Source of the DNA: Anaerolineae bacterium
Lineage (GTDB): Bacteria; Chloroflexota; Anaerolineae; B4-G1
Assembly: GCA_046760785.1 (NCBI GenBank)
Contig: JBHIET010000003.1
Location: 451-64,450 of the forward strand
Length of the DNA: 64,000 bases
Direction: 5' to 3'
Shown here piece after piece: positions 12,988 to 59,379 of this stretch. The notes beneath the pieces were generated by a model. It was not told the DNA's origin and did no database searches. It saw only the letters and a program-made list of their open reading frames with translations. The translations under genes were made by a program, and so were the position numbers. Every line of letters starts with the position of its first letter. Positions within the stretch are counted from its first letter, which is position 1.

Positions 12988-13025
12988 GGGGAAAGATGCA
13001 GAATGGAGGATGCAAGAAGCAAGTA

Positions 13026-19098: not shown

Positions 19099-19149
19099 AT
19101 TTTTTTCACCTTCCCCCAGAACACATGAGAAACGAATCTATCGGCACAT

Positions 19150-29218: not shown

Positions 29219-29293
29219 CAGGTAGAGTGTAACACAGCTACGGCTACAGCACAACAGCGAGTAGAGACAACAAACGGATCGAGTGGTGGCGAG

Positions 29294-30211
29294 ATGAGAC
29301 ACCTGAGCCGCGAGCAGCGCCGCGGCGTCATGAACACAATCATTGCCAGTTTCCTTCTGGGCTGGGCACCCATTCTGGGCAAAATAGCCTATACGAGCGG
29401 TGCCACGCCATACACCCTGGTTGCCCTCCGCACGCTGGTGGCAGCGCTGCTCCTGTGGTTGGTTTTTGCGTTCTTCTGGCGTCGCGAGATCGCTATCTCC
29501 TGGCGTGACCTGATCGGATGTGTCGCTGTGGGCGCAGTGAACGGCTTCGGATCGCTACTCTACTACATGAGTCTCTTACGCCTCGATGCTTCTCGTGCCT
29601 CGCTGCTCAACACCCTCTACCCACTATGGGTGGTACTGTTCCTCTTCGCTGCCGGACAGCCACTGACGCGCCTCACCTTGGCGCGCCTGACGCTCTCTAC
29701 ACTGGGAATTTATCTACTGACGCGCACGCGGCCAGGGGAACTGGATTGGTTGGGAGTAATGCTGATGATTGCCTCAGCGGCGACCTATGGCTGGCACCTG
29801 GTGTTAGGACAGTGGGTGCTGGCCGATGTGCCGGCGCACAAGGCAGCGCTCTACATTCTGACGACCATGGCCTGCGTGGTCGGTGTGGCACGGGCGCTGC
29901 AGGCGCGGCCAGTGGAACCTATCGTGAGCACCGGATGGGGCGCGATCCTGGCGCTGGGGCTGACGACCGCCCTATCGCGGCTGGCGATGTTCAGCGCACT
30001 GGAACGGCTGGGAGGAGTCGAGACGGCGTTAGCTGGCCTGTTGGAACTGCTGGTCAGCCTGGTGCTGGCTTTCTTATTGCTAGGCGAACGCCTGACACTT
30101 GTACAGTGGCTTGGAGGCGGGCTGCTGGTGGTCAGCCTGATGATGATGACTCGCGATCCTGGGATGCGCCTGGCAGAGGGAAACGTGCCTCTGGAGTGGA
30201 AGCAGCAGTGA
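29294..30211 (+). CDS. DMT superfamily transporter (EamA family)
   Basis: 305 aa from the ATG at 29294 with about 10 TM segments in a two-fold EamA-like arrangement. The 3' end overlaps the convergent kinase gene by 80 bp. Confidence 0.8.
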   Translation: MRHLSREQRRGVMNTIIASFLLGWAPILGKIAYTSGATPYTLVALRTLVAALLLWLVFAFFWRREIAISWRDLIGCVAVGAVNGFGSLLYYMSLLRLDASRASLLNTLYPLWVVLFLFAAGQPLTRLTLARLTLSTLGIYLLTRTRPGELDWLGVMLMIASAATYGWHLVLGQWVLADVPAHKAALYILTTMACVVGVARALQARPVEPIVSTGWGAILALGLTTALSRLAMFSALERLGGVETALAGLLELLVSLVLAFLLLGERLTLVQWLGGGLLVVSLMMMTRDPGMRLAEGNVPLEWKQQ

Positions 30212-31475
30212 GCCAGAAGGAAGGCTCACACACTGGCAGGAGAATATGGAAGGTGCTGCCCGGCAGCCGTTCCTCGTCGTATCCTGTGCTTTCCACCCAG
30301 ATTCTGCCACCGTGGGCCTCGATGATACCTCGCGCCACGGTGAGTCCCAACCCCAGTCCACCGCCTTTGAACGCGGTCTTACTGGAATGGTGGCGGGCTG
30401 TATCCTCCAGCACATAGAAGCGATCGAATATGCGTTCCTGTTCCTCCACCGGAATGCCTACACCGGTATCCTGGACAGAGATGTGCACTGTATCACCAAT
30501 CTGACGCCCCACGATGCGTATGTGCCCGCCGTCAGGAGTATACTTCACCGAATTACTGATGACGTTCCACAGCGCCTGATGCAGCCGCTTTTCGTCTCCG
30601 TTGAGCGCTGGCAAATCCTCCAGATCCTCAAACTCGAATTGCAGGTTCCGGGATGGGCTAAAACCCTGCACCCTCTCCACCACGCCACGTATTAGCGGCT
30701 TCAGAAGCACCGGTTCCCGGGCCAGGTCCAAACGATCGGCGTCAATGAGGGAGACGTTGCGGATTTCATCGAAGATCTGGTCAAGTCGCTGGGCGGCGTG
30801 GGCGACGCGCTGGAGAAGCTTGCGAGGGCTATCCTCTTCGCCGGGCGCATCGGGAATATCTGGGTTATTGAGCAGCATCTGAACATAACCGTAGACACAG
30901 GTCAGCGGCGTGCGTAATTCGTGGCTGGCCAAGATGATGAAATCCGATTTCACCTTCTCAATCCGTTGCAACTCGGCGTGAGCCCCCTCCAGTTCGCGGA
31001 TCTTCTCCTCCAGCCGGTCCACCAATTTGCGGCTGTACTCAACCAGGTACTCATTTTTCTCCTCTGGAGACTCGATCTCCTCCCTCGCCCTTAGTAGAAA
31101 GGAACGCACCTGATCTGGGAATTCGTCCACGTCAATTGGCTTAGGGATGTAGCCGGTGCAGCCGGCGATGAGCGCCCGTTCCCTGTCGCCCTGCAACGTG
31201 GCAGCAGTGACAGCGACTATGGGTACTCGCCGCATCTCCTCGATGGACCGCAGGTGGGTGGTCACCTCGTGGCCGTCCAGTCCACCGATGTTGATGTCCA
31301 TAAGGATCAGAGCGGGCATCTCGCGCTTGGCGATCTCAATAGCAGAGAGGCCATCAGAAGCGATCACGACCCGGTGACCTTCGCCTTCGAGCACGCGACG
31401 TACCAGGGCTACACTGGACGGATCATCCTCTACGTAAAGTATTGTGGTGTGTTGTGGCCTGGCTTTGTCAGCCAT
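30132..31475 (-). CDS. hybrid REC-histidine kinase (N-terminal receiver, coiled coil, HisKA, HATPase)
   Basis: REC with ALILMDINIGGLDG. H-box FIILASHELRTPLTCVYGY. HATPase with N box …NSVKYTP… and G boxes DTGVGI and GGGLGLGL. Confidence 0.9.
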   Translation of the reverse strand: MADKARPQHTTILYVEDDPSSVALVRRVLEGEGHRVVIASDGLSAIEIAKREMPALILMDINIGGLDGHEVTTHLRSIEEMRRVPIVAVTAATLQGDRERALIAGCTGYIPKPIDVDEFPDQVRSFLLRAREEIESPEEKNEYLVEYSRKLVDRLEEKIRELEGAHAELQRIEKVKSDFIILASHELRTPLTCVYGYVQMLLNNPDIPDAPGEEDSPRKLLQRVAHAAQRLDQIFDEIRNVSLIDADRLDLAREPVLLKPLIRGVVERVQGFSPSRNLQFEFEDLEDLPALNGDEKRLHQALWNVISNSVKYTPDGGHIRIVGRQIGDTVHISVQDTGVGIPVEEQERIFDRFYVLEDTARHHSSKTAFKGGGLGLGLTVARGIIEAHGGRIWVESTGYDEERLPGSTFHILLPVCEPSFWLTAASTPEARFPLPGASQDRESSSSG

Positions 31476-31537
31476 CTGCCTTGCACCGTCAAATGAGAGC
31501 AGAGGAGCAGGGGAAGGATTGGATCGAAAACTCTTAC

Positions 31538-33241
31538 CTACGCCGCCCGCTTCAGAATCTCTTCCAGCAGTTCTTCGTCGGTAAAGGAGCCCTTCTGCAT
31601 CAACTTGTCAATCCGGCCACTGAGACGCTGCCGTTCGGCGGCCGTCAGCTCCTTGGCCGTGACGACAATCACTGGCACATCGCTCAAATCCTCGTCGGCC
31701 TTGAGGGCTTCCAGCACCGCAAAGCCATCCATACCCGGCATCATCAGGTCTAGCAGGATGAGATCGGGCCGCTCGCGGCGCACCAACTCGAGGCCCTCGA
31801 CTCCGTCGTAAGCCTCGAAAATCCGGTACTCGCCCCGTGTTTGCAGGATGCGGCGCAGCAACAGCGCGGCCTTGGGATCATCCTCGATAATGGCAATGCT
31901 CCGCACACGCCCATCGAGTTGCCCTAGCGAACCCAGCAGTCCCTCTTCAACAGCAACCGGTATCTCTGCGGGCACCTCCACCGTCCGCGCCCATTCATCC
32001 CCCAGCAAGTGCTTTTCGACCGGGAAGGTGTGGCCAGAGCAGTTGACAACGATGACCTCATCACGCTGGATTATACCCCTGCTGAGCAATTTGAACAACC
32101 CGGCGAAGGCCGCTGCCGCCGCCGGTTCCATCGAGATGCCGTCCAGCTTGGCCATCACGTGCATGGCGCGGAACGTTTCCTCGTCGCTGACCGCTTCGAA
32201 GACACCGCCGTGCTCCTGCATGACTCGGGCCAGGAAAGAATAGGCGGGGCCGGGGTTGCCGGTGGCGATGGTGATGACCAGCGTCTGCGGGTTGAGGACA
32301 GGCTCGGCCTCCTCCAGCCCTTTATTGAAGGAATTGACCATCGGCGCGCAACCGGCAGCTTGAATGCAGGCCAGTTTCGGCATCCGATCCACCAGTCCCA
32401 GCGTCATCAACTCCTCATACGCCTTCCACACGCCTACCGGCCCCATTCCCCCACTGACGGCCTGGAAGTACCAATCGGGCGTGCGCCAGGGAGTCCCAGA
32501 AACCGAGTTTTGCGGAAAAAACCCGCTTTCTTCTCCAAGCAGCAGGGGGAGTTGTTCGGCGATCTCGAAAGCAACGGTTTTCATAGCCTCGCGGGCCGCT
32601 ATATCCCGAATACCCCGGTCGAGGAAGATCTCCTTACGATGCGCAAAATCCGCCGCAACCTTCTTGGTCTGGTCATAGCTGGCAGTCACTTTGACGACCT
32701 CGCTCCCGTAGAGCGCTACCTCGCGCATTTTCTCAGGGGGCACCAGGCTGGTGAGAAAGGTCCACATTTTGATGCCGGCCAGCGCGGAGTAGGCCGAGTA
32801 GGAGATGGCGACGTTGCCGGTCGAGGCGACGACCGCCTCGGTCACGCCATACTCCTTCATCAACGAGATAGCCAAGGATGCCTGCCGGTCCTTGAATGAG
32901 CCGGTTGGCCCCTGCCGCTCGTCCTTGACGTAGATATGCGGACAACCAAGCATCAGGCCGAGATTGGTGGCGCGGAGCAGCGGAGTTCCCCCCTCACCCA
33001 TCGTCACTTTGTGGGTGCCGTCGCGGAGAGGGAGTAGTTCCCGATAGCGCCACATGTCGAAAGGCCGCTCGCGCAGCACGGCGGGCCACCGTGCCCGCAC
33101 GTAGTCGTAGTCGTAGCGGGCGTCGAGCCACTCCCCGCCGCACCGCTCGCAGGCTTTCAGGGGCCTGACAAACGAGGTGCTGTGTCCACAGGCCGCGCAC
33201 TCCAGCCAGACTTGATGACTGAGCTTATCCTGTTTCGTCAT
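31538..33241 (-). CDS. threonine-synthase-like PLP enzyme fused to a C-terminal receiver domain
   Basis: N-terminal Cys4 ribbon (CAACGH…CERCGG) and PLP-lysine motif GPTGSFKDRQASL. The C-terminal REC (IAIIEDD…, DLILLDLMMPGMDG, VIVVTAK, …QKG) is intact. The start overlaps the giant kinase stop by 17 nt. Confidence 0.85.
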   Translation of the reverse strand: MTKQDKLSHQVWLECAACGHSTSFVRPLKACERCGGEWLDARYDYDYVRARWPAVLRERPFDMWRYRELLPLRDGTHKVTMGEGGTPLLRATNLGLMLGCPHIYVKDERQGPTGSFKDRQASLAISLMKEYGVTEAVVASTGNVAISYSAYSALAGIKMWTFLTSLVPPEKMREVALYGSEVVKVTASYDQTKKVAADFAHRKEIFLDRGIRDIAAREAMKTVAFEIAEQLPLLLGEESGFFPQNSVSGTPWRTPDWYFQAVSGGMGPVGVWKAYEELMTLGLVDRMPKLACIQAAGCAPMVNSFNKGLEEAEPVLNPQTLVITIATGNPGPAYSFLARVMQEHGGVFEAVSDEETFRAMHVMAKLDGISMEPAAAAAFAGLFKLLSRGIIQRDEVIVVNCSGHTFPVEKHLLGDEWARTVEVPAEIPVAVEEGLLGSLGQLDGRVRSIAIIEDDPKAALLLRRILQTRGEYRIFEAYDGVEGLELVRRERPDLILLDLMMPGMDGFAVLEALKADEDLSDVPVIVVTAKELTAAERQRLSGRIDKLMQKGSFTDEELLEEILKRAA

Positions 33242-36200
33242 CTTGCGCGCTTCCTTCACGTGAAAACCGCTTCAGTGCTGCTGCCACGTCTACCAGCAGC
33301 TCCCCCTGCTCGAAGAGCCCTTTCTGTAGCAACGCCTCCACCCTGCTGGTGAGGAAGTCCCGCTCTTCCTGGCTCAGATCTTTGGCGGTTACAACGACGA
33401 TGGGGATAGAGCGGGTGGTCTCATCCGCCTTAACTGCCTCCAGGACAGCAAACCCGTCCACCTCCGGCATGATGAGATCCAGGATGATAATGTGGGGCTG
33501 TGTCTGCCGGATCAGAGTGATGGCCTCCTGACCACCGGCTGCCTCCATTACCTCGTACCCCTCACAGGCTTCGATCATCCGGCGCAGGAGATTCCGGTCC
33601 TCCGGCTGGTCGTCCACCACCAACACAAGATGCCGTCCGGCCTCCCGGTCGAGGTGATCCAGCGCAGCCACCAGATCCTCCTCGAGGATAGGCTTGATCA
33701 GGTAGTCGGATGCACCCAGGCTGAGACCGCGCTCTTTCTCACTCAGGATGGTGCACAGGATGACCGGGATGTGGCGGGTCTCGGGGTCAGACTTCAGTTC
33801 CTGAATGACCTGCCAGCCATCTTTACCGGGCATCATCACGTCCAGCGTGATGGCAAAGGGTCTCAGTTTCCGGGCCCGTTCCACCGCTACTGTGCTGTCG
33901 GTAAGACCAATAACTTGATAGCCCTGTTTGCTCAAGTAGCGGCGGAAGAGAGTGATGACGCCCTCATCGTCCTCCACGCAGAGGACGACCTTCTGCCCGG
34001 GCTCTGGCTCTGGCTGCTCCACCTCCACTTCCTCAGATGGCAAGGGAGGACCCTTGATGGGCAACGTGAAGTAGAAAGTAGAGCCCTTCCCCAACCCGCT
34101 CTCCACCCATATGCGGCCGCCGTGCATTTCCACGAACTCACGGGTGATGGAAAGGCCCAATCCCGTGCCTCCAGCGCGACGAGTGGTCGAGGCATCCACC
34201 TGGATAAAGGGATCGAAAATACTATCGAGCTTCTCCGGCGCAATGCCTATGCCACTGTCGGCGACAGAGATAGTTACTTCGGTGGAACTGGCCTCGGCCT
34301 CCACACGAATGAAACCCGCCTCGGTGAACTTCTCAGCGTTGGAGACCAGGTTGAGAAGCACCTGCCGGATACGACGCTCATCCCCTCGCACCTTCGGCAG
34401 ATCCTCGGGGATGGACTGCTGCAACTCGATGGGCTTGTCCTTGACCAGTGCGATGGCGGTAGCCATGACGCCCTCGATGGCCTCTTTCAGATCCACCGCC
34501 TCGAAAGACAGTTCCATCTTACCGGCTTCTATCTTCGAAATGTCCAGGATATCGTTGATCAAACGCAACAGGTGCTGTCCGCTGTCGTAGACGGCCTGTA
34601 GATCGGTGCGCTGCATGTCAGTGAGCGGGCCGTCAATTTCCTTGAGGATGACGCGGGAGAAGCCGATGATAGAGTTGAGCGGCGTGCGCAGCTCGTGGGA
34701 CATGTTGGCCAGGAACTGACTCTTGAGTCGGTCCACCTCCGCCAGCCGCTCGGCTGTGTGCACCGCATCCTGGAACAGGCGAGCGTTCTCCAGGGCTACA
34801 CTCAGGTTGGCAGCCACAAGCTCGGCAAACGCGGCCTCCACAAGGGGTTGTCCCTTGAGTGTGCTGAGATCGAGCACGCCCAGCACCTGGTTGCGGGAGA
34901 CCAAGGGGACATAGATGGCGGATTGGGCCTGTGCCCGCCTGGCCACATCGGCCAGCGGGCCGCTGAGGTCAGCGGTTGTCTCCAGGATGCGTGTGCGACG
35001 CCCCATCACCGCCTCGAAGAGAACGGGGTTCATCTCGCGGGTTACCTGCTCAAGGCCCTCAGGCAGCGGGACATCGGTAGCGTCGGCGGCGTGGACGGCG
35101 ACCAGGTGGAGCACCTTCTCCTCCGGTTCCCAGGTGAAGACCGCGGAGGGCACCTCCAGACGGTGAGAGATGACCTCCCCAGCCCGATGGAGCAGTTCCT
35201 CCGGGTCCAACGACGCAGCGGCTGTCTGGAGCATCTCGTTGATGAGGGCGCGGCGCATAGCATCGGCCCGGGCGTCTTGGAACAGGCGAGCGTTGGCAAT
35301 GGCGGTAGCCAACTGGTCGGCCATCGTCTGCAAAACGGCCACATCCTCCTCAGAAAAAGCGCCCTCCTCAGTGGACTGGACGTCCAACACCCCGATCACT
35401 CGCTCCCGCACTTTCAGCGGCAACGCCATCTCCGAACGGGTGTCGGGAAGGTCGGGGTTGTTGAAAAAGACGGCGTCCTGGCCCACATCCAGGGCAATGC
35501 GAGGCTCCCCCGTGCCAGCGACGTAACCGACGATGCCGACCTCGCCAACTCTTAGTCGGTGGCCTCGCTCCAGCATCCGGCGCCCGCCCTCGGAGGAGGC
35601 AGCTTGCAGAACTGCGTACCTGTCCCGCTCGTCCAGGAGGAAGACGCCGGCGTGGTAGAAGCCAAACCGTTCGGAGATGCGGTGTACCGCCTCGTCCAGC
35701 AACTGATCCACGTCCAGGATGGCGGTGGCATCGCGAGCGACCTCTGCGGCGGTGGCCAACTGGGTCGCCCTGCGTTGCGTCTCTTCGAACAGCCGGGCGT
35801 TCTGCAGGGCGATGGCCGCCTGGCTGGCGATGGCGGTCAGCAGGTCCCGGTCGTGCTCGTCGTAGAGACCGGGGGTGGTGTAACTCTGGACGGCCATCAC
35901 CCCCAGCACCTGGTCGCCGACCATCAGCGGCACCCCCAGCCAGGAGAGAGCGGGCTCACCCACCATTTCCACCCCCATCTCCTCCAACTGCTCGGCCACA
36001 TTCTCCTGGGTGAGCACACTCGTGCGGTTGCGCACGATGTACCCGCTGACACCCTCGTCTGCGGACATGACGGTGAGCGTCTCCTTATCAATCTCTGACT
36101 CGGTGATTTGAAAGTCGAAGGTGAGCTCGTGCCTCTCCGGGTCGTAGAGGGCGATGAAGAAATTGGTGGTGTCCACCAGGCGGGAGGCCTGCCGGTAGGC

Positions 36201-43064: not shown

Positions 43065-43122
43065 CTCGACCCCCAAGAATCCAAGATTGGGAGATTTAGG
43101 ATTGGTGGATTTATCTCGTGTA

Positions 43123-43171
43123 CCATTTGACGTCTGTCATTTGATATTTGACATTTGTCACTTGTCATTTG
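43123..43171. repeat. 7 degenerate heptamers (NNaTTTG) spanning the stop codon of the 43158 gene and the intergenic spacer
   Basis: ccatttg acgtctg tcatttg atatttg acatttg tcacttg tcatttg. The adjacent 43080-43111 region shows GATT at 7-8 nt spacing. Confidence 0.8.
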
Positions 43172-45413: not shown

Positions 45414-45461
45414 AACAAGTTCTCCAAGACAGGCAGGCGCAAGAACTGCCCCTACCCCAAA

Positions 45462-47204: not shown

Positions 47205-47958
47205 GATTCATCAACTCCTTGGCCAGGGCGCGGTACTGTTGAGCCCCACGGGTCTTCGGCGCATAAAGTGTGATCGGTTGACCAAACACCGGGCTTTCCC
47301 TCAACCTGGTATCCACCTCGATAACAGTACTGAAGAGTACCTCGCTCAGTCCCCGCTGCATCTGGCCAAGTATGACCCGGCAGATCTTGTTGCGCCGGTC
47401 ATACATCGTCACCAGCACGCGGTACTTCAGCCGTGGGTTGGTCTTCTCTCGCACGCGCTGAACCAGTTTCACAAAGTGAAGGAGCGTGTGAGCGGCATAA
47501 TACTCACATTGGATGGGAATGACGAGCAAATCAGCCGCCGTCAGGGCATTGAGGGTCAGTGTCCCCAGGGAGGGCGGACAGTCAATCAGGACAAAGTCGT
47601 AGAAACCCTCGTCCATAATATCCAGCCCGTTCTTCAATCTGAATTGATAGCCCGGTCGCCCATAGAGGATTCTGTCGAGGACGACGAGCCCCTGATTGGC
47701 AGGCACGATGTCCAGGCCGTATACCGGACTCTCGCGGCTGACGCCAACCAGCGAGGCGTTTCCCAGAAGGGCATCTCCCACTGTGCGACGCAACTCCCTC
47801 GGTTTCAACCCCATCGAGAGAGTGAGATTGGCCTGGGGGTCAAGATCAACGAGCAGGACAATCTGCCCCATCTCGGACAGGCAGGCTCCCAACGACAGGC
47901 AGGTAGTGGTCTTGGCCACCCCTCCCTTTTGATTGCTGATGGCGATAGTTGTAGCCAT
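47194..47958 (-). CDS. orphan ParA/Soj-type deviant Walker A ATPase
   Basis: MATTIAISNQKGGVAKTTT (KGGxxK[ST] deviant Walker A). Walker A' LLVDLDPQ and Walker B VLIDCPPS. No ParB-like gene in the window. Confidence 0.9.
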   Translation of the reverse strand: MATTIAISNQKGGVAKTTTCLSLGACLSEMGQIVLLVDLDPQANLTLSMGLKPRELRRTVGDALLGNASLVGVSRESPVYGLDIVPANQGLVVLDRILYGRPGYQFRLKNGLDIMDEGFYDFVLIDCPPSLGTLTLNALTAADLLVIPIQCEYYAAHTLLHFVKLVQRVREKTNPRLKYRVLVTMYDRRNKICRVILGQMQRGLSEVLFSTVIEVDTRLRESPVFGQPITLYAPKTRGAQQYRALAKELMNHGK

Positions 47959-47978
47959 AGCTGATCCCTTCCTATTGC

Positions 47979-50810: not shown

Positions 50811-50858
50811 AGTTGCCTCCAGCTTGGGATGGGAGTGCCGCCACTATTGAAACTCACC

Positions 50859-52601
50859 TCACTCAACGCCATCTCCGGCTTCATCCGTTGGCCGGGTCGC
50901 CAGCCGGATCACGACCTCCGGCAGCCCCAACGCCTGGCGCACCTGTTGCACAGCGGTCTTAAGTATGGTCTCCGTATCCAGCGTCTCGCGCATGCGGGCC
51001 GCAATATCGCCGATCAGCCGCTCGCGAGCGGCGCGGCGCTGGGTCTCATCAATCAGGCGCAAGTTCTCAATAGTCAGTCCAACCTGCTCGGCGACGGTTT
51101 CCGCCAGAGCGATATCCTGGGTCGTCCACGGTCGTTGGCGACGTGTTTCGTGCAGAGCCATCGTGCCTATGACCTGCCCCCGCAACTTCAGGGGCACCAC
51201 GAGCGCCGTCTGGGATGTAGGAGGCTCCGCATCAGAGCCTGGAAAGGGACTGTCTGTAGCAACTGCCCGTCCGTGCATCATCACCGCGCGCCGGGCCTCG
51301 CGCAAGAATTCTCCATCCCCCACCTCTGCTCCCGGCTGGGTGTAGTCAATCCGAGTCACCGGCCCGGCAGCCAAGAACTCCTTCCAGGCCTGGGCCAGGT
51401 AGCGTCGGTGGGCAGCCCGCACTTCCTTCAAAGCAGCTTCAGTCTGGCTGAAGAGTCGAGCATTGTCAACCGCTACTGCCACCTGATCGGCCACCGTCTG
51501 TAGGGCAGTGACGTCAGCTTCGCTGAAGGCCGCCTCCTGGGTACTCTGCACGCTCAATGCTCCCAGGACACGTCCACGTGAGCGCAGCGGCAGGGCGATC
51601 TCCGAGCGCGTGTGTGGCATAGGGAGGGCATCAAGCTGCACCGTGCCCTCTTCCATGCCCAGTGCAATGCGGGCCTGCCGATGGATAACGCACCAGCCGA
51701 TCGCGGTTGTCTCGTCTAGTTCCACTTTGTGGCCCATCCCCAGCAACAGTTGGCCGGCCTCCCCTGTGGCAGCTCTCAGCACGGCAAACCGCTGTGTCTC
51801 GTCAAGCAGGAACAGGCCCACGTAGTACACGGCCATAGGGCGGAATCCCTCTTGAATCCGGTTGGCCACCTCGACCAACAACGCATCTGGGTCCAAGATG
51901 GAGGAGGCTACTTGAGCGATCTCGGCCGTCGTCTGGAGCTGGGAAGCCTGCCGGTGCAACAGCTCGGTAGTTTCTTCCAGCTCCTGTGTCCGTGCCTGCA
52001 GTTGCTGATTGGCCGTGCTCGCCCTCGCCATTGCCTCCAACCAGCTCCGGTTGAACGACCACAGCATCAGTGTCAGAATGGTCACCATAAGCAGGAAGGA
52101 GCCTCCCTCACCGACCCACGTTTTCAACGCATTCAGGTCGTCGGCCACGAGAGGTACGAGCCATCCCTGGCTGAAGACGAGGGTGAAGAAGGCGTAGGTC
52201 AGGACACTGGCAATCCCGGCCCAGATGCCGGGGCGCGGGCCTAACAGGATGAAAGTCAGAGCCGGGAGCAACAACATCCAGACACGCCCACTGCCGGGCA
52301 GCCCACCCCGGCGGAAGATGAAAAAGCCCAGCAAGTAGGTGAGCGTGAGAGAGAGCGCCGCCCGAGGGCGATAGCCCAAGCCGCGCCAGGCCCAGATGAT
52401 CAGCACGATCAGCCAGCCGGCGAGGAAAGGCCACATCTCCATCCACAGTTCTGGCACGCTCAGGCCCGCCGGCAGCGACAGGTAGGTCAAGACTAACGCT
52501 GCGAGGCCGCCGGCCACCGCAGTCAGCAGCAGACCATTCAGCAGCGTGGCGCGGCTGCGTTGGATTTCGACGTCCCAATCAGATACGGGTTGTGTGTCCA
52601 T
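50859..52601 (-). CDS. kinase-less paralogue 4: ~8 TM, coiled coil, GAF, partial GAF, C-terminal truncated GAF-like module
   Basis: About 580 aa (ATG at 52601 or GTG at 52607). Ends …IAARMRETLDTETILKTAVQQVRQALGLPEVVIRLA…. Confidence 0.8.
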   Translation of the reverse strand: MDTQPVSDWDVEIQRSRATLLNGLLLTAVAGGLAALVLTYLSLPAGLSVPELWMEMWPFLAGWLIVLIIWAWRGLGYRPRAALSLTLTYLLGFFIFRRGGLPGSGRVWMLLLPALTFILLGPRPGIWAGIASVLTYAFFTLVFSQGWLVPLVADDLNALKTWVGEGGSFLLMVTILTLMLWSFNRSWLEAMARASTANQQLQARTQELEETTELLHRQASQLQTTAEIAQVASSILDPDALLVEVANRIQEGFRPMAVYYVGLFLLDETQRFAVLRAATGEAGQLLLGMGHKVELDETTAIGWCVIHRQARIALGMEEGTVQLDALPMPHTRSEIALPLRSRGRVLGALSVQSTQEAAFSEADVTALQTVADQVAVAVDNARLFSQTEAALKEVRAAHRRYLAQAWKEFLAAGPVTRIDYTQPGAEVGDGEFLREARRAVMMHGRAVATDSPFPGSDAEPPTSQTALVVPLKLRGQVIGTMALHETRRQRPWTTQDIALAETVAEQVGLTIENLRLIDETQRRAARERLIGDIAARMRETLDTETILKTAVQQVRQALGLPEVVIRLATRPTDEAGDGVE

Positions 52602-52643
52602 GAGCACTTCCTCGTGTTACTCCAAAGAAACCGAGTTTCTGAC

Positions 52644-54713
52644 CTATTCGTGCATAGGCGCTTCCAGTTCGATAGAAACATGTGGCACTCCCATGGCCCG
52701 TGAGAGTTCCTCCGCTGTAGCCTGCAAAGCCTGCTCTACATCCACAGCCCGACGGATACGGTCAACCATCTGGCGAGCCAGTTGCTCCCGTTCTGCACTT
52801 CGTTGCGCTCTCTCCAACAGTTGTGCACGCTCCAGCGCCACTGCCGCCTGGTCGCTCAGGACCTCGTAGAGGCGCAGGGCGGCGTCCGAGAAGGGGCCAG
52901 ATGTGGCACGCAGCACGACCACCTGACCGATCACCTTTTCTCTGGCGCGTAGTGGAATGTTGACCAGTGCTCGCGCGCCAGTCTGCTGAAAGACCTGGCG
53001 CGCACTCTGGGGCAGGCGCTCATCCTGCGCCACGTCGGTCACCACCCACAGGGTACTCACCATTTCAAAGGGAAAGGGGCTCTCCACGACTGGAAGCCGA
53101 AGCCCAGGTTGGAACTGAGGTTCCCGGTCCCTCCGCCACACCCCCAGGTACAGAAGGGCTTCAGGCTCCCCGGCAGGTGAGAACTCAAACTCCACCACAA
53201 TACACCCATCGGCCCCTGTCTCGGCCACAGAGCCAATGATGGCGTCAGCCACATCACCGGTCGCCGTCGCCGCAGTCAGGCGGCGGCTGGCGCGGTAGAT
53301 GGGGCTTATCGTCTCCAACAGGGCTGCCCTGTCGGAGACCCGCCGGGCGTTTTCGATGGCAATGGCAACCTGGTCGGCCATGCCCTGAAGTGCCCGCACG
53401 TCATCGTCGTCAAAGGCGGCTTCCTCGGTGGATTGGACGTTTAACACTCCTATCATCCACCCACCCACCATCAGTGGGAGGGTCATCTCGGAGCGGGTGT
53501 AAGGGAGGAGGGGGTTAGCAAAGCGGACCGCGTCCTCCTCCGCGTACAGAGCGATGCGGGGCTGGCGATGAGCGGCTGTCCAGCCAACCATACTGGTGTC
53601 GCCCACGGCCAGGCGGTGTCCCTGGGCCTTCATCTGTGCCCCGGCCTCGCCGGTAGCCTCCTGCAGGACCGCCCACTCCCCCGCCTCATCCAGCAGGAAG
53701 ATGCCAGCGTGATAGAAGCCGAAGCGGTCGCGAATCAAGTCTACGGTCGTGCGCAGCAACTGATCCACGTCAAAGATGGAAACAATGGCCCTCCCCACCT
53801 CGGCGCTAGTCTCCAGTTGAATGGCCCGGCGCTGGAGGGCGTAATTGGCTTTCTGGAGAGCCTCGGTCCGCTCCGCCACCCGCTGCTCCAGTTCGGCGTA
53901 CAGAGTCTGGAGGCGTTCGGCCATCTCGTTGAAGACTGTGGCCAGACCGCCGAGCTCATCCCCTCTCTCGACAGGGACCCGCTCCTCCAGGTGCCCCGCC
54001 GCCAAGTGAGTGGCTCCTTCCATCAGCCGCTGCACCGGGCCGGTGATGTTGCGGATGGTGGTGACGGCGGTGACCACCGCGGCGATCAGTGCCAACACAG
54101 CGAAGCCACCCAAGATGAAATAGGTCAGTTGGCGGGCAGCAGTAGCATCCGCGATGGCGGCAGCCTGCCGCTCCTCTGTCAATGAGATGATATTCTCTAC
54201 CGGCTCGGCCATGATCCGGTGATAGTCGGCCAGCAATTGGTCCTGGTAGAAATGAACGCTCTCCCAATTGCCTGCCTGGATTTGAGGAACGATCAGGTCG
54301 GCGAGGGAGTCCACGCGGGCCACGCGCCTCTGCGCGCGGGAGGCCTCCATCTGCATCGCATCCCTCTCAGGGAGATCAACCATCGTCTCGCTCAGGACGC
54401 GCTGGGCATCACCTAGATCCGCCCTGGCCTGGCTCACCACCTCCATCAGGTGATCCTGATCCTGCGCAGACGAGGCCTGGCCCAGCGCAGCCAACAGGTT
54501 GGCCGCAGCCCTCGCCACCTGCAGGGCTGCTGTTGCCCGGTCAGCCTCCTCCTGAAGGGCGGTGCTGGCCCACTCCAATTGCGCCAGTGCCCAGGCGTTG
54601 GTCACTACGCCGGCGAGCAGAAGCAGCAGGACCGCCACGAAGCCCCAGATCAGCCGCCCCCGGATGGTCAGACGGGTTGGCGGCACTCTCTGCACACGAT
54701 TCTCCGTCATCAT
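52644..54713 (-). CDS. kinase-less paralogue 5: TM, helical periplasmic region, TM, HAMP, GAF, second GAF-like region, C-terminal truncated GAF-like module
   Basis: 689 aa. GAF …DRFGFYHAGIFLLDE…LPYTRSEMTLPL…. Ends …RIRRAVDVEQALQATAEELSRAMGVPHVSIELE…. The start overlaps the upstream kinase stop (ATGA). Confidence 0.8.
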   Translation of the reverse strand: MMTENRVQRVPPTRLTIRGRLIWGFVAVLLLLLAGVVTNAWALAQLEWASTALQEEADRATAALQVARAAANLLAALGQASSAQDQDHLMEVVSQARADLGDAQRVLSETMVDLPERDAMQMEASRAQRRVARVDSLADLIVPQIQAGNWESVHFYQDQLLADYHRIMAEPVENIISLTEERQAAAIADATAARQLTYFILGGFAVLALIAAVVTAVTTIRNITGPVQRLMEGATHLAAGHLEERVPVERGDELGGLATVFNEMAERLQTLYAELEQRVAERTEALQKANYALQRRAIQLETSAEVGRAIVSIFDVDQLLRTTVDLIRDRFGFYHAGIFLLDEAGEWAVLQEATGEAGAQMKAQGHRLAVGDTSMVGWTAAHRQPRIALYAEEDAVRFANPLLPYTRSEMTLPLMVGGWMIGVLNVQSTEEAAFDDDDVRALQGMADQVAIAIENARRVSDRAALLETISPIYRASRRLTAATATGDVADAIIGSVAETGADGCIVVEFEFSPAGEPEALLYLGVWRRDREPQFQPGLRLPVVESPFPFEMVSTLWVVTDVAQDERLPQSARQVFQQTGARALVNIPLRAREKVIGQVVVLRATSGPFSDAALRLYEVLSDQAAVALERAQLLERAQRSAEREQLARQMVDRIRRAVDVEQALQATAEELSRAMGVPHVSIELEAPMHE

Positions 54714-57199
54714 AAGTTTCCCCCAGTCTGCCGCTGATCGGCCTCCTCATCCGAGGCAGCCAGACGCAGAGGCAGTGTGAAGGTAAAGGTGGAACCCCTC
54801 CCCACGTCGCTCTCCACCCAGATGTGCCCTCCGTGCATCTCCACGAATTCCTTGCTCAGGGCCAATCCCAACCCAGCCCCATTCGGCCGGCGCCCATCCA
54901 TCGTGCCCTGTTCAAAGCGCTGGAAGATCCGCTCCCGGTCCCCAGGCGGGATACCCACGCCGGTGTCGCTGACACTCACCATGACCTCCCCACCAGCGGG
55001 CCAGGCCCGTACAGTGATAGTCCCCTGCCCTGTAAACTTGGCCGCATTGGCCAGAAGCCGCAGCAGCACCTGGCGAATGCGCGCTGTGTCGGCCCGCACT
55101 ATAGGTAGGTCAGGAGCAATCTCCTGACGCAACTCAATGTCTTTATCGCGCACCAGTGCGCTGGCGGTAGCCATCACGCTGGAGACCAGGTCGGCCAGAT
55201 CCACCTCTCGGAACTCCAGTTCCATCAGCCCGGCCTCGATTTGAGAAATGTCCAGCAGGTCATTGATCAGGCCCAGCAGGTGTTGGCCATTTTGGTAGAT
55301 GATCTCAAGATCGTTCTGTTGCCGTTCTGTGAATGAGCCGTTAATCCCCTTCAGCATCAGCCGTGAGAAGCCGATGATATTGGTGAGAGGCGTGCGCAGT
55401 TCATGGGACATGTTGCTCAAGAAGCGGCGTTTGGAACGGTCCAGCTCCTGCAGTCGCTCAACCGCCTCCCGTTCCACGGCGTAGGCACGGGCGTTCTCCA
55501 GAGCAATGACGATCTGGTTGGCGACGTTCTGGAGGACAGAGACGTCGTCTGCGTCAAAGCCTTCCTCATCGGTGATCTGGACGTCCAGCACGCCCAGGGT
55601 ACGGTCCCCTAGACGCAATGGCAGGGCTACCTCTGAGCGAGTATAGGAGGCCGGAGGACCGACCGTAATGGGAAGGGGGCGGCTCTCCACCGCCGCCACC
55701 CCTTCCCGGAAGGCCTGTCCCACCGGACCCGGCAGGTCGGCGGGAACTTGTTGGCCGTGGAAGGGATCGGCATCACCAGCGAAGGCCCGCAGAAGCATGT
55801 ACTCTCCTTCCTCGTCAGACGTGTACACCGCGACGTAGGAGTAGGCAAACCGGCCTCTTACCACCTGGACTACCTGTTCTAGCAGTCTATTGGGGTCGAG
55901 GACGGAGGTGACGGCCTGCCCTACCTCCAGGCTAGCTTGCATCTGGATGGCCCGCCGCTGAATCTGATAGTTGGCTCTCTGCAAGAGAGCAGTACGTTGA
56001 GCAACCTTGTCTTCCAAGTCGTCGTACAAGGTCTTCAATTCCGCCGCCATGTGGTTGAACACGTAAGCCAGGATGCCAATTTCGTCCCGCGACGTGACGG
56101 GTACGCGCTGTTCCAGGTCTCCCCCCGCGATGCCAAGCGCCGACTCGGTCAATTGCACAATCGGACGGGTAAATTGCCGTGTCACGACCGCGGCGATGGC
56201 GGCGGTGACAAGCGCCACCACCAGCGTAGCACCGACAACAGCAGCCGTGACATTATAGGTTGTGGCAAAGGCTTCCTCTTGAGTCTGTTCTGCCACCAAC
56301 GCCAGCCCCAGTTCCGGCATCCAGTGGTAGACCCCGATAACTGGGACGCTGGCGTAGTTCTCATAAAGCCCTTCCCTGTTCTCGCCAGCAAGAGCGGCCT
56401 CGATACCTGAACTGGTCACCGCTTGCCCCTGAGGCAGCGCCATCCCACTGGCATCCACAAGGTAGATTTCTCCCGTCTCTCCGAGTTTGCCAACCGCCTG
56501 CAGGTCAGCGACCAGGTTGCTCGGATTGAGCCAGCCAACCAGCAGGCCGAGCGTCTCGTCATCTTGGCCAGTGATACGCTGGGCTTCGTCGTGAGGCTTC
56601 GTCGAGCTCAGCCGAGACGCGCTCAGCCGAACGGTGACCATCAATCGCTCATCGGCGGTTGGATCGAGTATGATGAACTGAAGAGCGGAGTCTTGTTCAG
56701 ACTCAAGGGCGGGCGCCTGTTCCGCCAACAAGCCCTCAGTTTGTGGGTCAGTAGAGACCAGCACTTTGCCTTCGCTATCAATCACGGCCAGGCAGCGAAA
56801 GGCAGGGTCTTGCAGAAGCACGGTCTGCAACTGGAGACGCAGCGCGTCGCGGGCGGTGGTGGCGCTTTGCTCTGAGCCTGTCGAAGGGTTAGCCGCATTG
56901 ACGACCAGGAGGCTCACATTTTCCCTGGTGGGAGGCAAGGCCGCCAGAAACGCCAAACTCGCAATGCGATGCTCGATCCATTGGCGGATCTGCATTTCCG
57001 TCACCGCAGCCACGGAGGATAGTTTAGCCGTAACCTCGCGCTGGATATCCTGCCGTTCGCGGAGGGTAGCATACCAACTGATAGCGCTCAGTGGCACGAT
57101 CGCCAGGACCAGGAAGGCGGTCAGCAGGGTCCTGCCCAACCCTCCACGCATCCCAGTGGTCGGGATCCGAGACTGTTCCATCGGGCCTGACGGCAACAT
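54710..57199 (-). CDS. sensor histidine kinase: TM, dCache-like, TM, HAMP, GAF, HisKA, HATPase
   Basis: 829 aa. H-box FLSNMSHELRTPLTNIIGF. HATPase N box …NAAKFT… and G boxes DTGVGI and GAGLGLAL. Confidence 0.92.
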   Translation of the reverse strand: MLPSGPMEQSRIPTTGMRGGLGRTLLTAFLVLAIVPLSAISWYATLRERQDIQREVTAKLSSVAAVTEMQIRQWIEHRIASLAFLAALPPTRENVSLLVVNAANPSTGSEQSATTARDALRLQLQTVLLQDPAFRCLAVIDSEGKVLVSTDPQTEGLLAEQAPALESEQDSALQFIILDPTADERLMVTVRLSASRLSSTKPHDEAQRITGQDDETLGLLVGWLNPSNLVADLQAVGKLGETGEIYLVDASGMALPQGQAVTSSGIEAALAGENREGLYENYASVPVIGVYHWMPELGLALVAEQTQEEAFATTYNVTAAVVGATLVVALVTAAIAAVVTRQFTRPIVQLTESALGIAGGDLEQRVPVTSRDEIGILAYVFNHMAAELKTLYDDLEDKVAQRTALLQRANYQIQRRAIQMQASLEVGQAVTSVLDPNRLLEQVVQVVRGRFAYSYVAVYTSDEEGEYMLLRAFAGDADPFHGQQVPADLPGPVGQAFREGVAAVESRPLPITVGPPASYTRSEVALPLRLGDRTLGVLDVQITDEEGFDADDVSVLQNVANQIVIALENARAYAVEREAVERLQELDRSKRRFLSNMSHELRTPLTNIIGFSRLMLKGINGSFTERQQNDLEIIYQNGQHLLGLINDLLDISQIEAGLMELEFREVDLADLVSSVMATASALVRDKDIELRQEIAPDLPIVRADTARIRQVLLRLLANAAKFTGQGTITVRAWPAGGEVMVSVSDTGVGIPPGDRERIFQRFEQGTMDGRRPNGAGLGLALSKEFVEMHGGHIWVESDVGRGSTFTFTLPLRLAASDEEADQRQTGGNL

Positions 57200-57231
57200 G
57201 ATCGTTCGCCTATACTACGCATGTGTCCGAA

Positions 57232-57642
57232 TCACCCTAGATCCCATATTTCTTCCCCTCGCAAGACGCGGCGGATTTGGTTGGGGAAGCGATCCGGGTC
57301 GAGTGGCTTGGCGATGAAACCATCGAAGCCAGCACTGCGGGCACGCTCCATACTGTCAGCAGATACGTCGGCGGTCACGGCAACGATGAGAGTGCTGTTG
57401 AAGCCCGGATGGGCGCGCAGCCTCTTCAACACCTGGTATCCGTCTTCCTCCGGCAAGAAAATATCCATTAAGATCAAGTCAATGTGCGGCAGCGACTCTG
57501 CAAATTCCAACACCTGCCAGCCCGACGCCTTCCACTCGCACTTCTTCACGCCAAGATAGGCCAGCAGGCGTGTGATGAGCACGAAGTTCTGGAAGTTATC
57601 CTCGACGACAAGGATTGTAGCGTCTTTTGGTTGTATGCCCAT
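57232..57642 (-). CDS. single-domain response regulator (CheY-like)
   Basis: 136 aa. ILVVEDN…, DLILMDIFLPEEDG, VAVTAD, …AKP. Confidence 0.9.
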   Translation of the reverse strand: MGIQPKDATILVVEDNFQNFVLITRLLAYLGVKKCEWKASGWQVLEFAESLPHIDLILMDIFLPEEDGYQVLKRLRAHPGFNSTLIVAVTADVSADSMERARSAGFDGFIAKPLDPDRFPNQIRRVLRGEEIWDLG

Positions 57643-57650
57643 AGTGACCT

Positions 57651-58034
57651 CTACAATATGCTGCTTTTCCGCAGTGCCTCTTTGACTTGTTCGGGTAGCC
57701 GGTCCACGTCAATGGGTTTCTGAATATAACCATCGCAGCCCGCTTCCAGTGTACGCTCCCGGTCCCCTTTCATCACGTTGGCTGTAAGGGCCAGGATGGG
57801 CACATGCTGCAGGCCAGGCGTCTCACGGAAGCGTCTAGCCAGGTCATAACCATCTATTTCTGGCAGATTGATGTCCAGCAAGATCAAATCCGGCTGCATC
57901 TGGGCAGCCATTTCCAATCCGGCAAGACCGTCCGTCGCCTCCAGCACGGAATAATCCTCTGCCTCCAGGATGCGCCTCACCAGCAGGCGGTTTGAAGGAT
58001 CGTCCTCGATATAGAGGATGCGAATACTACTCAT
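57651..58034 (-). CDS. single-domain response regulator (CheY-like)
   Basis: 127 aa from the ATG at 58034 (GGAGGG upstream). ILYIEDD, DLILLDINLPEIDG, LALTAN, …QKP. Confidence 0.9.
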   Translation of the reverse strand: MSSIRILYIEDDPSNRLLVRRILEAEDYSVLEATDGLAGLEMAAQMQPDLILLDINLPEIDGYDLARRFRETPGLQHVPILALTANVMKGDRERTLEAGCDGYIQKPIDVDRLPEQVKEALRKSSIL

Positions 58035-58095
58035 CAGACAAGCCCTCCGCACGGAATCTGCACCAAAACAGCAGCCGAATTGCCATAGGTGCTCT

Positions 58096-58124
58096 CATTA
58101 TATCAGATTCCAATTTAGATTTCA
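58096..58124 (-). promoter_or_regulatory. near-consensus promoter TTGAAA-17-TATAAT heading the signalling cluster
   Basis: -35 at 58119-58124, -10 at 58096-58101, about 60 nt upstream of the first response regulator ATG. Sits in a visibly AT-richer spacer. Confidence 0.6.
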
Positions 58125-58215
58125 ATGTTACGCCAATACTAGTGCGTTACAGATTGGTTACAATTTCGCCCATCGAAAACGTTACGGCTCGCCCTGCCGA
58201 CAGAATGATCTGAGT

Positions 58216-58244
58216 TTGACACGCACAGTGTTCTGTGGTACTAT
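58216..58244 (+). promoter_or_regulatory. near-consensus promoter TTGACA-17-TACTAT (TGg extended -10), divergent from the cluster promoter
   Basis: -35 at 58216-58221, -10 at 58239-58244. A second weaker motif, TTGCCC-18-TAGAAT, lies at 58303-58332. The ATG of the downstream gene is at 58450. Confidence 0.55.
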
Positions 58245-58449
58245 CTCACTGCCCGTCTCTCTAACTTCTGGAATACGTGCGGCGCTTCTGAACGCACGGG
58301 ACTTGCCCTTTAGTGGCAAGCTATGCTAGAATATAGACAGCAGCCACACGTTGTGGCGAAAAGATATGATTTGCGTTCTCTACAGTGATGGAACGCGGGC
58401 GTAGATCGAGTAGCAAAGCGCAATATCCATTAGTGAGAGGAGGAGTGAT

Positions 58450-59196: not shown

Positions 59197-59220
59197 CACT
59201 GTCTGCAGTGGGCAAGGCAC

Positions 59221-59250
59221 AAGCCCCGGGGCAAACCTCGGGGCTTCTTG
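59221..59250 (+). terminator. candidate intrinsic terminator
   Basis: aagccccg-N10-cggggctt followed by a short T-rich stretch, 25 nt after the stop. Confidence 0.4.
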
Positions 59251-59379
59251 CCGGTACGAGTTCATACCAAGCAGCCTATGCTGAGCCGCTCGCTTGGTTT
59301 CGATATGCTGCTCCCTCTGGTCGCAGCTACTCAACCAGCGCTCGCTCGCCCACTACTGCATCCAGCCTGAGCAGTAACT

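Follow-up and report, generated by a model that had tools for sequence, protein, structure and literature searches.

A modular two-component gene cluster of Anaerolineae with kinase-less membrane sensors, a ParA-type ATPase and a threonine synthase-like enzyme carrying a receiver domain

The DNA of interest is a 64-kb stretch from an Anaerolineae bacterium (contig JBHIET010000003.1 of GenBank assembly GCA_046760785.1, positions 451–64,450; hereafter, the window). An open reading frame (ORF) map of the window revealed twelve consecutive, co-directional ORFs (g1–g12) on the minus strand, between positions 30132 and 58052. These encode two-component signalling proteins—histidine kinases, receivers and a set of membrane sensors that lack a kinase—together with a ParA-type ATPase and a pyridoxal phosphate (PLP) enzyme. 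We propose that the cluster is a lineage-specific, modular two-component network of the Anaerolineae: one that receives multiple inputs, is organised by ParA, and has as its output a receiver-controlled PLP enzyme and an EamA transporter. Our confidence in this proposal is evenly balanced, and the observations for and against it are set out below. The cluster itself is no chance pile-up of genes: its order is kept in dozens of related genomes and metagenome contigs.

Gene content of the cluster

All twelve proteins were searched with Pfam (reporting limit E ≤ 0.01) and NCBIfam profiles, and transmembrane (TM) segments were assigned from hydrophobicity profiles. The results (Table 1) bear out the number, orientation and domain order of the genes as given in a first-pass annotation of the same DNA. 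The cluster consists of (i) a head of two single-domain receivers (REC) and a sensor kinase (g1–g3), (ii) an array of five kinase-less sensors (g4, g5, g6, g8 and g9), interrupted by the ParA gene (g7), and (iii) a giant hybrid kinase (g10), a threonine synthase (ThrC)-like enzyme fused to a receiver (g11, or ThrC-REC) and a second soluble kinase (g12). Between two and seven TM segments are predicted for each of g3–g6, g8 and g9, and none for g11 and g12.

Translation of g1 probably starts at the ATG at 58034, just after a GGAGGG Shine-Dalgarno sequence, within an ORF that is open back to a GTG at 58052. Given this start, and the ATG starts of g10 (43064) and g11 (33241), the intergenic distances range from a 17-nt overlap to 93 nt, reproducing the range first reported. 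The 17-nt overlap is that of the g11 start with the g10 stop codon; g8 overlaps the ParA stop codon by 11 nt, and the EamA gene overlaps the 3' end of g12. No terminator-like hairpin lies inside any intergenic gap, and terminator counts are not above those of shuffled controls. A single long transcript, driven by a regulated promoter (see below), probably covers the cluster.

In agreement with the first-pass annotation, no helix-turn-helix (HTH), GGDEF/EAL/HD-GYP, CheA/CheW/MCP, sigma factor or phosphatase family was detected in the twelve proteins by either profile collection; NCBIfam models of methyl-accepting chemotaxis proteins (MCPs) match the HAMP region only, far below their cut-offs. 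No Hpt domain was found by Pfam or NCBIfam in any of the twelve, and the two receivers of g10 fill the sequence that follows its HATPase_c domain. What the cluster encodes, then, is HisKA kinases and receivers, and neither a Che pathway (MCP, CheW, CheA) nor an Hpt relay.

Table 1. Features of the cluster and its borders, in window coordinates (REC, receiver; TM, transmembrane segment).
Feature	Position	Strand	Evidence
g1, single-domain receiver	57651..58034	-	Pfam Response_reg E = 1.3e-29
g2, single-domain receiver	57232..57642	-	Pfam Response_reg E = 6.8e-20
g3, membrane sensor histidine kinase: TM-dCache_1-TM-HAMP-GAF-HisKA-HATPase	54710..57199	-	Pfam, hydrophobicity, H-box
g4, kinase-less sensor: TM-periplasmic domain-TM-HAMP-GAF-truncated GAF-stub	52644..54713	-	Pfam, hydrophobicity, paralogue alignment
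g5, kinase-less sensor: MASE11 (4 TM)-GAF-truncated GAF-stub	50859..52607	-	Pfam, hydrophobicity, paralogue alignment
g6, kinase-less sensor: 6 TM-dCache_1-TM-HAMP-GAF-truncated GAF-stub	47979..50810	-	Pfam, hydrophobicity, paralogue alignment
g7, Soj-type ParA/MinD-family ATPase	47194..47958	-	Pfam AAA_31 E = 2.1e-50; also CbiA
g8, kinase-less sensor: N-terminal tag MVSKDLRDHLKGLFS (47157-47204)-acidic disordered linker-2 TM-GAF-truncated GAF-stub	45462..47204	-	
g9, kinase-less sensor: TM-dCache_1-TM-HAMP-GAF-truncated GAF-stub	43158..45413	-	Pfam, hydrophobicity, paralogue comparison
g10, soluble hybrid kinase, 3279-3283 aa: coiled coil-PAS-GAF-PAS-GAF-GAF-PAS-GAF-truncated GAF-9 further GAFs-HisKA-HATPase-REC-REC	33225..43064	-	Pfam
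g11, Zn-ribbon + ThrC-like PLP enzyme (PALP) + C-terminal receiver	31538..33241	-	Pfam PALP E = 9e-58, Response_reg E = 2.6e-21
g12, REC-HisKA-HATPase kinase	30132..31475	-	Pfam
EamA/DMT-family transporter, convergent with g12	29132..30211	+	Pfam EamA, two repeats
Hypothetical membrane protein, conserved, 257-aa ORF	28529..29302	-	No Pfam or NCBIfam match
Sigma-70-like promoter TTGAAA-17-TATAAT, TG before the -10 hexamer	58097..58125	-	Score 11/12
Operator-like direct repeats TGTAAC-N5-TGTAAC, third GTAAC 14 nt on; end just upstream of -35	58127..58162	-	

Conservation of gene order

The loci in which the cluster was followed beyond the window include (i) 56 loci from a ParA scan of one genome per species, in which ORFs were mapped onto the window proteins by BLAST, and (ii) ThrC-REC neighbourhoods in 80 metagenome loci (55–85% identity), with counts taken only over loci with enough flanking sequence. 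Individual loci are cited by their L numbers. In about 20 genomes of Anaerolineae and Thermoflexia, the genes on either side of ParA are kinase-less GAF paralogues. The order g3-g4-g5-g6-ParA-g8-g9 is kept in L021 and, as far as the loci extend, also in L020 and L027. The most distant loci, L046 and L048 (ParA 47% identical), have a co-directional core of ParA, GAF hybrid kinase, ThrC-REC and EamA.

At the other end of the cluster, around ThrC-REC homologues of 79–83% identity, the genes run in the order Cache-HAMP-GAF-GAF, giant PAS/GAF kinase, ThrC-REC, REC-kinase and convergent EamA. A g10-like kinase lies directly upstream of ThrC-REC, on the same strand, in 34 of 46 loci. Downstream, a g12-like REC-kinase is present in 28 of 48 loci and EamA (within 2.2 kb) in 31 of 48; at least one of the two is found in 44 of 48. 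EamA directly follows ThrC-REC on the same strand in the most divergent group, in which g12 is absent.

The REC-REC-kinase head precedes GAF paralogues in all four other genomes where this part of the locus can be seen (L041, L150, L151 and L152). Since the genes upstream of the head differ each time, the cluster begins at g1. L150 and L076 belong to the same 110-kb contig, where the whole cluster occupies about 40 kb. Among the head proteins, g2 is 71% identical to its L041 orthologue, and g3 has more than 120 orthologue clusters at 60% identity or above. Conservation of the neighbourhood, proposed as a check on the first-pass annotation, was thus found: the head module, the ParA-plus-GAF array and the linkage of giant kinase to ThrC-REC are all kept, and a scattering of these genes in relatives was not seen.

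Kinase-less membrane sensors

The five kinase-less proteins share a common architecture: a HAMP domain or coiled coil leads into a full GAF domain, a second GAF in which nothing but the C-terminal half of the profile is matched, and a terminal segment (conserved pattern ENARLxEETQRRAxRERLxxEITxxxRxxxDxExxLQTAVxELxxxLGxxxxxVRLG), after which comes a variable acidic tail. This C-terminal ending is present in most of 78 aligned paralogue sequences (five from the window and 73 from other genomes), and is therefore a family trait rather than a truncation artefact. Databases name the family simply 'GAF domain-containing protein'.

In an AlphaFold2 model of g8 residues 160–580 (mean predicted local distance difference test score 85.6), a long helix leads into a full GAF whose final helix is 48 residues long. 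A reduced GAF follows, made up of one helix, three strands and a helix of 46 residues; beyond it come the stub helix, of 15 residues, and a disordered tail. A fold search with this model returned single GAFs, the tandem GAFs of PDE2/5 and CyaB2, and phytochrome GAF-PHY modules, and no others; a fold other than GAF for the paralogue module was rejected on these grounds. The matched folds are helical-spine transducers, which normally end in an effector.

The unit of GAF plus reduced GAF also occurs inside g10 (residues 982–1274), and the paralogue module is homologous to g10 residues ~982–1310. In g10 the unit precedes a complete GAF; the stub of the sensors is therefore more simply explained as the retained first helix of a lost GAF than as a circularly permuted piece that would complete the truncated GAF. 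Identity of the first GAF to GAF4/GAF12 of g10 is highest in g9 (78%), followed by g4 and g6 (54–61%) and by g5 and g8 (47–51%); the truncated GAF of g9 aligns with g10 as well. No cluster protein matches the NKFDE-type cyclic-nucleotide motif, N[KR][FYVL][DE][EDQ].

On the proposed model, the g3 kinase and the five membrane sensors would detect extracellular or membrane signals. The kinase-less sensors may act much as chemoreceptors do, modulating g10 and/or g3 without catalysis, by homotypic GAF contacts or contacts between helical spines. As to the ligands, genes for periplasmic solute-binding proteins (SBP_bac_5, Peripla_BP_5/6) lie among the sensors in L013 (587–2296 and 5417–7102), L016 (3223–4473) and L150 (19069–20124), and in L152 (12438–15473) a Peripla_BP_1 domain is fused to a kinase-less sensor. 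Such interspersed and fused proteins hint at nutrient-type ligands.

Some arrays contain further genes. In a Thermoflexia metagenome-assembled genome, a gene for a 120-aa DUF7793/SpoIIAA-like (STAS-type) protein lies between GAF paralogues (L003 and L004, 36–398; L009, 14521–14883); it is absent from the window. L151 carries, just before ParA (12351–13274), a gene for a coiled-coil (Scy/apolipoprotein-like) protein with DUF3782 and PDDEXK_10 domains, and within the array (18639–19421) a second DUF3782/PDDEXK_10 protein.

ParA and its tagged partner

The g7 protein has a deviant Walker A motif (KGGVAKT, residues 11–17) that fits the pattern xKGGxxK[ST], and among solved structures it comes nearest to ParA/Soj proteins (E = 7e-52 to 1e-43). 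Two features of the gene that follows it are of interest. Firstly, this gene overlaps the ParA stop codon, by 8–20 nt across the window and about 38 related loci. Secondly, in these loci its product always starts with M-x-(D/N)-(K/N)-(D/E)-L-(R/K)-x-Q-L-E-(G/D)-L-F-S-D (core DLRxQLEGLFSD), hereafter the tag. The rest of the tagged protein can be quite different: a second ParA paralogue (ParA2, 71–76% identical) has tagged partners that are PAS-GAF-PAS-LytR_cpsA_psr (LCP), FGE-sulfatase-like or TPR proteins. Within the window, g8 is the only tagged ORF.

The tag resembles the N-terminal motif of ParB, LG(R/K)GLxAL(L/F). Partners of ParA/MinD ATPases are usually encoded nearby and act via an N-terminal peptide (PMC10241942, PMC7333895). 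This rule, the translational coupling of the two genes and the retention of the tag on unrelated cargo together make g8 the likely partner of ParA, the adaptor via which ParA would position the sensor assembly. More specifically, ParA would bind the ParB-like N-terminal peptide of g8, and so position or partition the sensor-kinase assembly along the nucleoid in the cells of the filament. The portability of the tag suggests a general ParA 'luggage tag' system in the Anaerolineae. The coupling, and a tag apparently carried by every protein encoded right after a ParA of this family, lend support to the idea in the first-pass annotation that the system may be spatially organised.

The giant kinase, the receivers and their predicted wiring

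The g10 protein combines PAS domains, 13 full GAFs and one truncated GAF with a HisKA-HATPase core and two receivers. It has one weak hydrophobic stretch only, and no Pfam membrane-sensor domain. GAF units are duplicated at the protein level across residues 1275–2757, with a period of ~169 aa; GAFs 5, 6, 8, 9 and 11 share 58–78% mutual identity, GAF3 and GAF10 76%, and GAF4 and GAF12 79%. Tandem Repeats Finder detected no DNA-level repeats in g10. A recent repeat expansion was accordingly rejected: the GAF duplications are old, and visible in the protein only.

Three kinases—g3, g10 and g12, as first reported—score above the cut-offs for HisKA and HATPase_c, and share an HELRTP H-box. Of the motifs of the ATP-binding domain, g10 has the N, G1 and G2 boxes, g12 has G1 and G2, and g3 has G1. 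The number of receivers had been put at seven; we count six (g1, g2, two in g10, g11 and g12), and a search of the twelve proteins for a seventh found none. All six keep the acidic pocket (E/D)D, the phospho-acceptor D57, T87 and K109 (CheY numbering).

The kinases and receivers fall into groups. In the DHp helix, g3 and g10 share 65% identity, while that of g12 (25% identical to g3) is distinct from both. Among the receivers, those of g1, g2 and g12 form one group (35–46% identity) and the second receiver of g10 pairs with that of g11 (45%), with the first receiver of g10 standing alone. These groupings, and the existence of stand-alone ThrC-REC/g12 pairs, suggest wiring from g3 and g10 to the g12 receiver, and from g12 to ThrC-REC. 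That is, g3 and g10 probably serve the same receivers (the g1/g2/g12 group and g10's own first receiver), and g12 probably passes the signal to the receiver of g11, which is most closely related to the second receiver of g10. The two small receivers, g1 and g2, would be branches or sinks. Where a lineage has no g12, the link from the hybrid kinase to ThrC-REC would be direct.

The first-pass annotation regarded the cluster as one integrated phosphorelay. Conserved linkage speaks for integration. The relay is a different matter: without an Hpt domain, the arrangement would be a kinase cascade or branched network and not a His-Asp-His-Asp relay, and its modules can be found apart (L151; L121 and L126).

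ThrC-REC, EamA and the proposed output

The PLP domain of g11 matches ThrC of Mycobacterium tuberculosis (2d1f; E = 1e-47), and also 2zsj and 1uim. It keeps the PLP-binding K123 (in SFKDR), the STGN loop (S146, G148 and N149) and a four-cysteine N-terminal Zn ribbon; K123 and these three loop residues are invariant in the sequence alignment. An identical protein is encoded in a metagenome-assembled genome recorded at NCBI as 'Anaerolineae bacterium'. The 120 best-matching clusters listed (at 90% identity) are all at least 78% identical to g11. The full-length fusion of ThrC and receiver is nonetheless rare: about six clusters were found among 1.84 billion representatives at 50% identity, and the nearest unfused relative in the same library is 53% identical. 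Two distant fusions (ThrC-REC-REC, 48–49% identity) lie directly after HAMP-GAF kinases and before small receivers; because they too follow such kinases, ThrC-REC was evidently paired with a GAF kinase before the Anaerolineae cluster arose.

From these sequence features, g11 appears to be a catalytically competent enzyme of the threonine synthase type, with a receiver that would be a genuine target of the cluster kinases; its product would be threonine or a related compound. Phosphorylation of the receiver would change the activity of the PLP domain. The EamA transporter (TIGR00950 score 71.6 bits, under the cut-off of that model) is a likely functional partner of ThrC-REC, and would move the product or substrate of g11. 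With an enzyme gated by a receiver and linked to EamA, control of the output would be metabolic and would involve no DNA-binding response regulator; the conserved linkage and the intact catalytic residues are what this step rests on.

A readout that is enzymatic or structural, and not transcriptional, is what the first-pass annotation had suggested. Its enzymatic part is favoured: ThrC-REC is the most constantly linked receiver protein, with its lysine and aspartate intact and, in nearly all cases, a REC-kinase and/or EamA gene beside it. Its negative half, 'not transcriptional', is too strong in view of the conserved putative operator described below.

Two sets of genes on the EamA side of the cluster may be mentioned here. 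The hypothetical membrane protein next to it has homologues (30–48% identity) beyond EamA in many related loci. Genes for glycine-cleavage P-protein subunits lie about 20 kb downstream of the cluster (6440–9420, minus strand); in L046 (7456–10264), such genes come soon after EamA, with one small unassigned ORF between. This proximity may be large-scale synteny only, or may reflect a link to glycine, serine and threonine metabolism.

Promoter and putative operator

The promoter-like motif reported ahead of the cluster, TTGAAA-17-TATAAT, is present and is the best promoter-like site of the region. In an alignment of the regions upstream of g1 orthologues, a (TG)nTATAAT element is kept in L150, L151 and L152. 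About 25–40 nt upstream of this element is a direct repeat, TGTAAC-N5-TGTAAC, kept ahead of the REC-REC-kinase head in L150 and L152 and degenerate in L151 and L041. The exact repeat occurs once in the window (58146–58161). A single occurrence is within chance expectation, and the evidence for an operator is therefore its conservation across genomes.

The repeat recurs elsewhere. ParA2-LCP operons in seven loci have three copies with an 11-bp period, ending 21–25 nt before a TATAAT. The positions of the repeats outside the window, with those ahead of the cluster head in L150 and L152 included, are L017 1562, 3782 and 9736; L019 9858; L024 9492; L026 24; L028 9858; L029 5301; L045 9836; L150 9045; and L152 9016. 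Two extra copies in L017 lie ahead of other genes.

The shared repeats point to a regulon that would comprise the signalling cluster and the ParA2-LCP operons under a DNA-binding regulator. Sites of OmpR/PhoB-type regulators have a similar direct-repeat arrangement. Genes for OmpR-type regulators are found in L045 (as the next gene after the ParA2 partner), in L121 and L122 (close to a ThrC-REC/REC-kinase pair) and in L068 (upstream, within the same gene run); as candidates for the regulator, they are suggestive only. We infer from the conserved putative operator that an unlinked regulator would control expression of the cluster, by binding to TGTAAC direct repeats with an 11-bp spacing.

Evidence against the proposed network, and alternative explanations

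Several observations weigh against a ParA-organised network with ThrC-REC and EamA as its output. These include (i) at the enzyme, scores below the curated ThrC cut-offs (NF006050, 267.6 versus 303 bits; TIGR00260, 143.6 versus 167.1 bits), a subfamily-specific, glycine-rich PLP loop (SGGMGP) unlike that of typical ThrC, an insertion, and one distant fusion (P0279, 43% identity) that lies among arginine-biosynthesis (argF/argD-like) genes with no kinase nearby; (ii) at the sensors, a tag that is acidic or neutral, whereas the described partner peptides of ParA/MinD proteins are positively charged, and a homotypic pairing of sensor GAFs with g10 that is pure inference; and (iii) in the loci, separable modules. 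L151 has the head, ParA and array with no giant kinase/ThrC end adjoining; L121, L126 and similar loci have ThrC-REC and a REC-kinase only; L098 and L110 have ThrC-REC and EamA only. The adjacency of EamA in close relatives could, in part, reflect shared ancestry rather than function.

Of the competing explanations, the one we take most seriously, though it too is doubtful, is that g11 is a housekeeping threonine synthase with an acquired receiver: the network would tune threonine or amino-acid biosynthesis to nutrients, with EamA and ParA as bystanders. The full set of ThrC catalytic hallmarks, the threonine synthases as closest structures, the strong conservation of g11 among its best matches and the P0279 fusion all fit, as do the peptide, amino-acid and sugar solute-binding proteins found among, or fused to, the sensors of related clusters. 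The sub-cut-off scores (under the NCBIfam equivalog threshold) and the unusual loop and insertion tell against this explanation as well, and EamA is a poor bystander: it stays adjacent, and turns co-directional, in the most divergent relatives. It is unlikely, to a somewhat greater degree, that the main output is transcriptional, with the cluster kinases phosphorylating an orphan DNA-binding regulator encoded elsewhere (e.g., an OmpR-type protein acting on TGTAAC) and ThrC-REC and the small receivers serving as side branches or phosphate sinks. The 11-bp-period repeats ahead of both the cluster and the ParA2-LCP operons, and the OmpR-type regulators near some operons, make this conceivable. 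However, neither the window cluster nor most related clusters contain a DNA-binding regulator, the exact motif occurs just once in the window, and an operator would indicate that the cluster is regulated while saying nothing of whether its kinases drive the regulator.

Equally unlikely, in our view, is an accumulation in tandem by duplication, in which g1–g3, each GAF protein (as a separate small-ligand receptor) and g10–g12 are independent units, no integrated function exists and the common orientation records duplication history. The number and type of GAF paralogues do vary widely across genomes, internal duplication of GAFs has given g10 orthologues of between 863 and 3283 aa, and the head/array and ThrC modules lie apart in some contigs. 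Duplication would leave unexplained why the order head, array, ParA, array, giant kinase, ThrC-REC recurs even though the proteins are only 45–75% identical, and why the stop/start overlaps at g3/g4, g7/g8 and g10/g11 are conserved; further, the kinase-less proteins have no output of their own, and hold in common with g10 a module of up to 78% identity. Finally, ParA could be an ordinary chromosome or plasmid partition ATPase that lies in the cluster by accident. We regard this as very improbable: g7 is indeed a Soj-type protein, with chromosomal ParA/Soj proteins as its best structural matches, but no ParB gene adjoins it, many genomes keep both its place between GAF paralogues and its overlap with tagged g8, and ParA2 is coupled in the same manner to other tagged membrane and signalling proteins.

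Comparison with known systems

Functionally, the proposed network most resembles a chemosensory array with a ParA-like ATPase of the ParC (Vibrio) or PpfA (Rhodobacter sphaeroides) type. Both have several HAMP membrane sensors without an enzyme domain, a soluble kinase, single-domain receivers, and a ParA/MinD ATPase encoded in the cluster together with a partner whose N-terminal peptide binds it (binding is predicted here). The components are otherwise different: no MCP domain, CheW, CheA (Hpt/P2/P5), CheR or CheB was found in the cluster; its coupling module is a GAF, truncated GAF and stub, its kinase a HisKA hybrid, and its output an enzyme in place of a motor-binding CheY.

In Pseudomonas, the accessory sensors RetS and LadS modulate a central hybrid kinase, GacS. 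There as here, a single hybrid kinase is the meeting point of several sensors, which may control it by direct contact rather than phosphotransfer. RetS and LadS keep kinase-like cores, however, whereas the cluster sensors have lost DHp and CA entirely and are encoded with ParA and a PLP enzyme. The tandem-GAF and GAF-PHY proteins (PDE2A/PDE5A, CyaB2 and phytochromes) have the same fold as the g8 model, with long helices that form a signalling spine, but a catalytic effector stands at their end; in the paralogues its place is taken by a stub helix and disordered acidic tail, and there is no NKFDE motif.

Similarly, the Soj-like ParA with its deviant Walker A motif, and a partner gene immediately downstream, are as in ParABS and other ParA/MinD cargo systems. 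Unlike in ParABS, the partner is a membrane GAF sensor (or, in paralogous operons, an LCP, FGE-sulfatase-like or TPR protein) rather than a DNA-binding ParB, and the tag is not positively charged. As for g11, its fold-type II PLP core, catalytic lysine and STGN are those of ThrC (Zn-ribbon PRK08197 type), and its receiver has the complete phospho-acceptor site of response regulators with enzymatic output (CheB, PleD and RpfG). It departs from these regulators in that the receiver is C-terminal to the enzyme, and from ThrC in scoring under the equivalog cut-off. No publication was found in the literature on ThrC-receiver fusions, the kinase-less HAMP-GAF family, the tag or ParA-kinase clusters, and nothing relevant on GAF kinases of Anaerolineae or on PLP enzymes as output domains; nor was a described system of this composition, consistent with the first-pass annotation.

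Flanking regions

The cluster is clearly bounded, with the convergent EamA gene at its 3' end. Upstream of it, beyond a stretch of 1.7 kb, are DnaC-like, DnaD-like and DnaB genes: DnaD-like, DnaC/IstB-like and DnaB helicase genes occupy 59801–61794 and 62748–63878, both on the minus strand. Between the promoter and dnaC (58053–59800), the only ORFs are without a family match (58380–58886, minus; 58450–59196 and 59193–59759, plus). In L026 and L029, a ParA2-LCP operon lies immediately upstream of the orthologous DnaD-DnaC pair. An Rfam search of the window returned only a transfer-messenger RNA (tmRNA) gene, outside the cluster (25590–26012, minus; RF00023, 145.9 bits). Further genes of the window encode a 1424-aa membrane protein with a YfhO-like region and a Polysacc_synt flippase domain (13026–17300, minus) and a TMEM260-like O-mannosyltransferase (1835–3886).

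Implications

A more detailed scenario can be drawn, which we consider improbable as a whole: the kinase-less HAMP-GAF proteins, as a new class of receptor, would pair with the giant kinase through their GAFs or helical spines, in the manner of chemoreceptors and CheA, the Soj-like ParA would position and partition the assembly via a ParB-mimicking tag on one of the receptors, and threonine or a related metabolite, made under receiver control and exported by EamA, would serve as a secreted signal or cross-feeding device in multicellular filaments.

If the proposed network is correct, it has three features as yet undescribed for two-component signalling: (i) a family of membrane sensors that has shed its kinase and yet been conserved, in arrays beside a giant soluble kinase; (ii) the re-use of a chromosomal-type ParA to position proteins of signalling and of the cell envelope, by means of an N-terminal tag that is portable; and (iii) a PLP enzyme of amino-acid synthesis under the direct control of a receiver, with a metabolite transporter as its partner. 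Both the tag and the TGTAAC repeats are short, directly testable handles on these ideas. Anaerolineae are abundant in sludge, sediments and hot springs, mostly as uncultured filaments; a conserved sensory apparatus of 28–40 kb is, therefore, likely to be central to their nutrient sensing or to the coordination of their cells.

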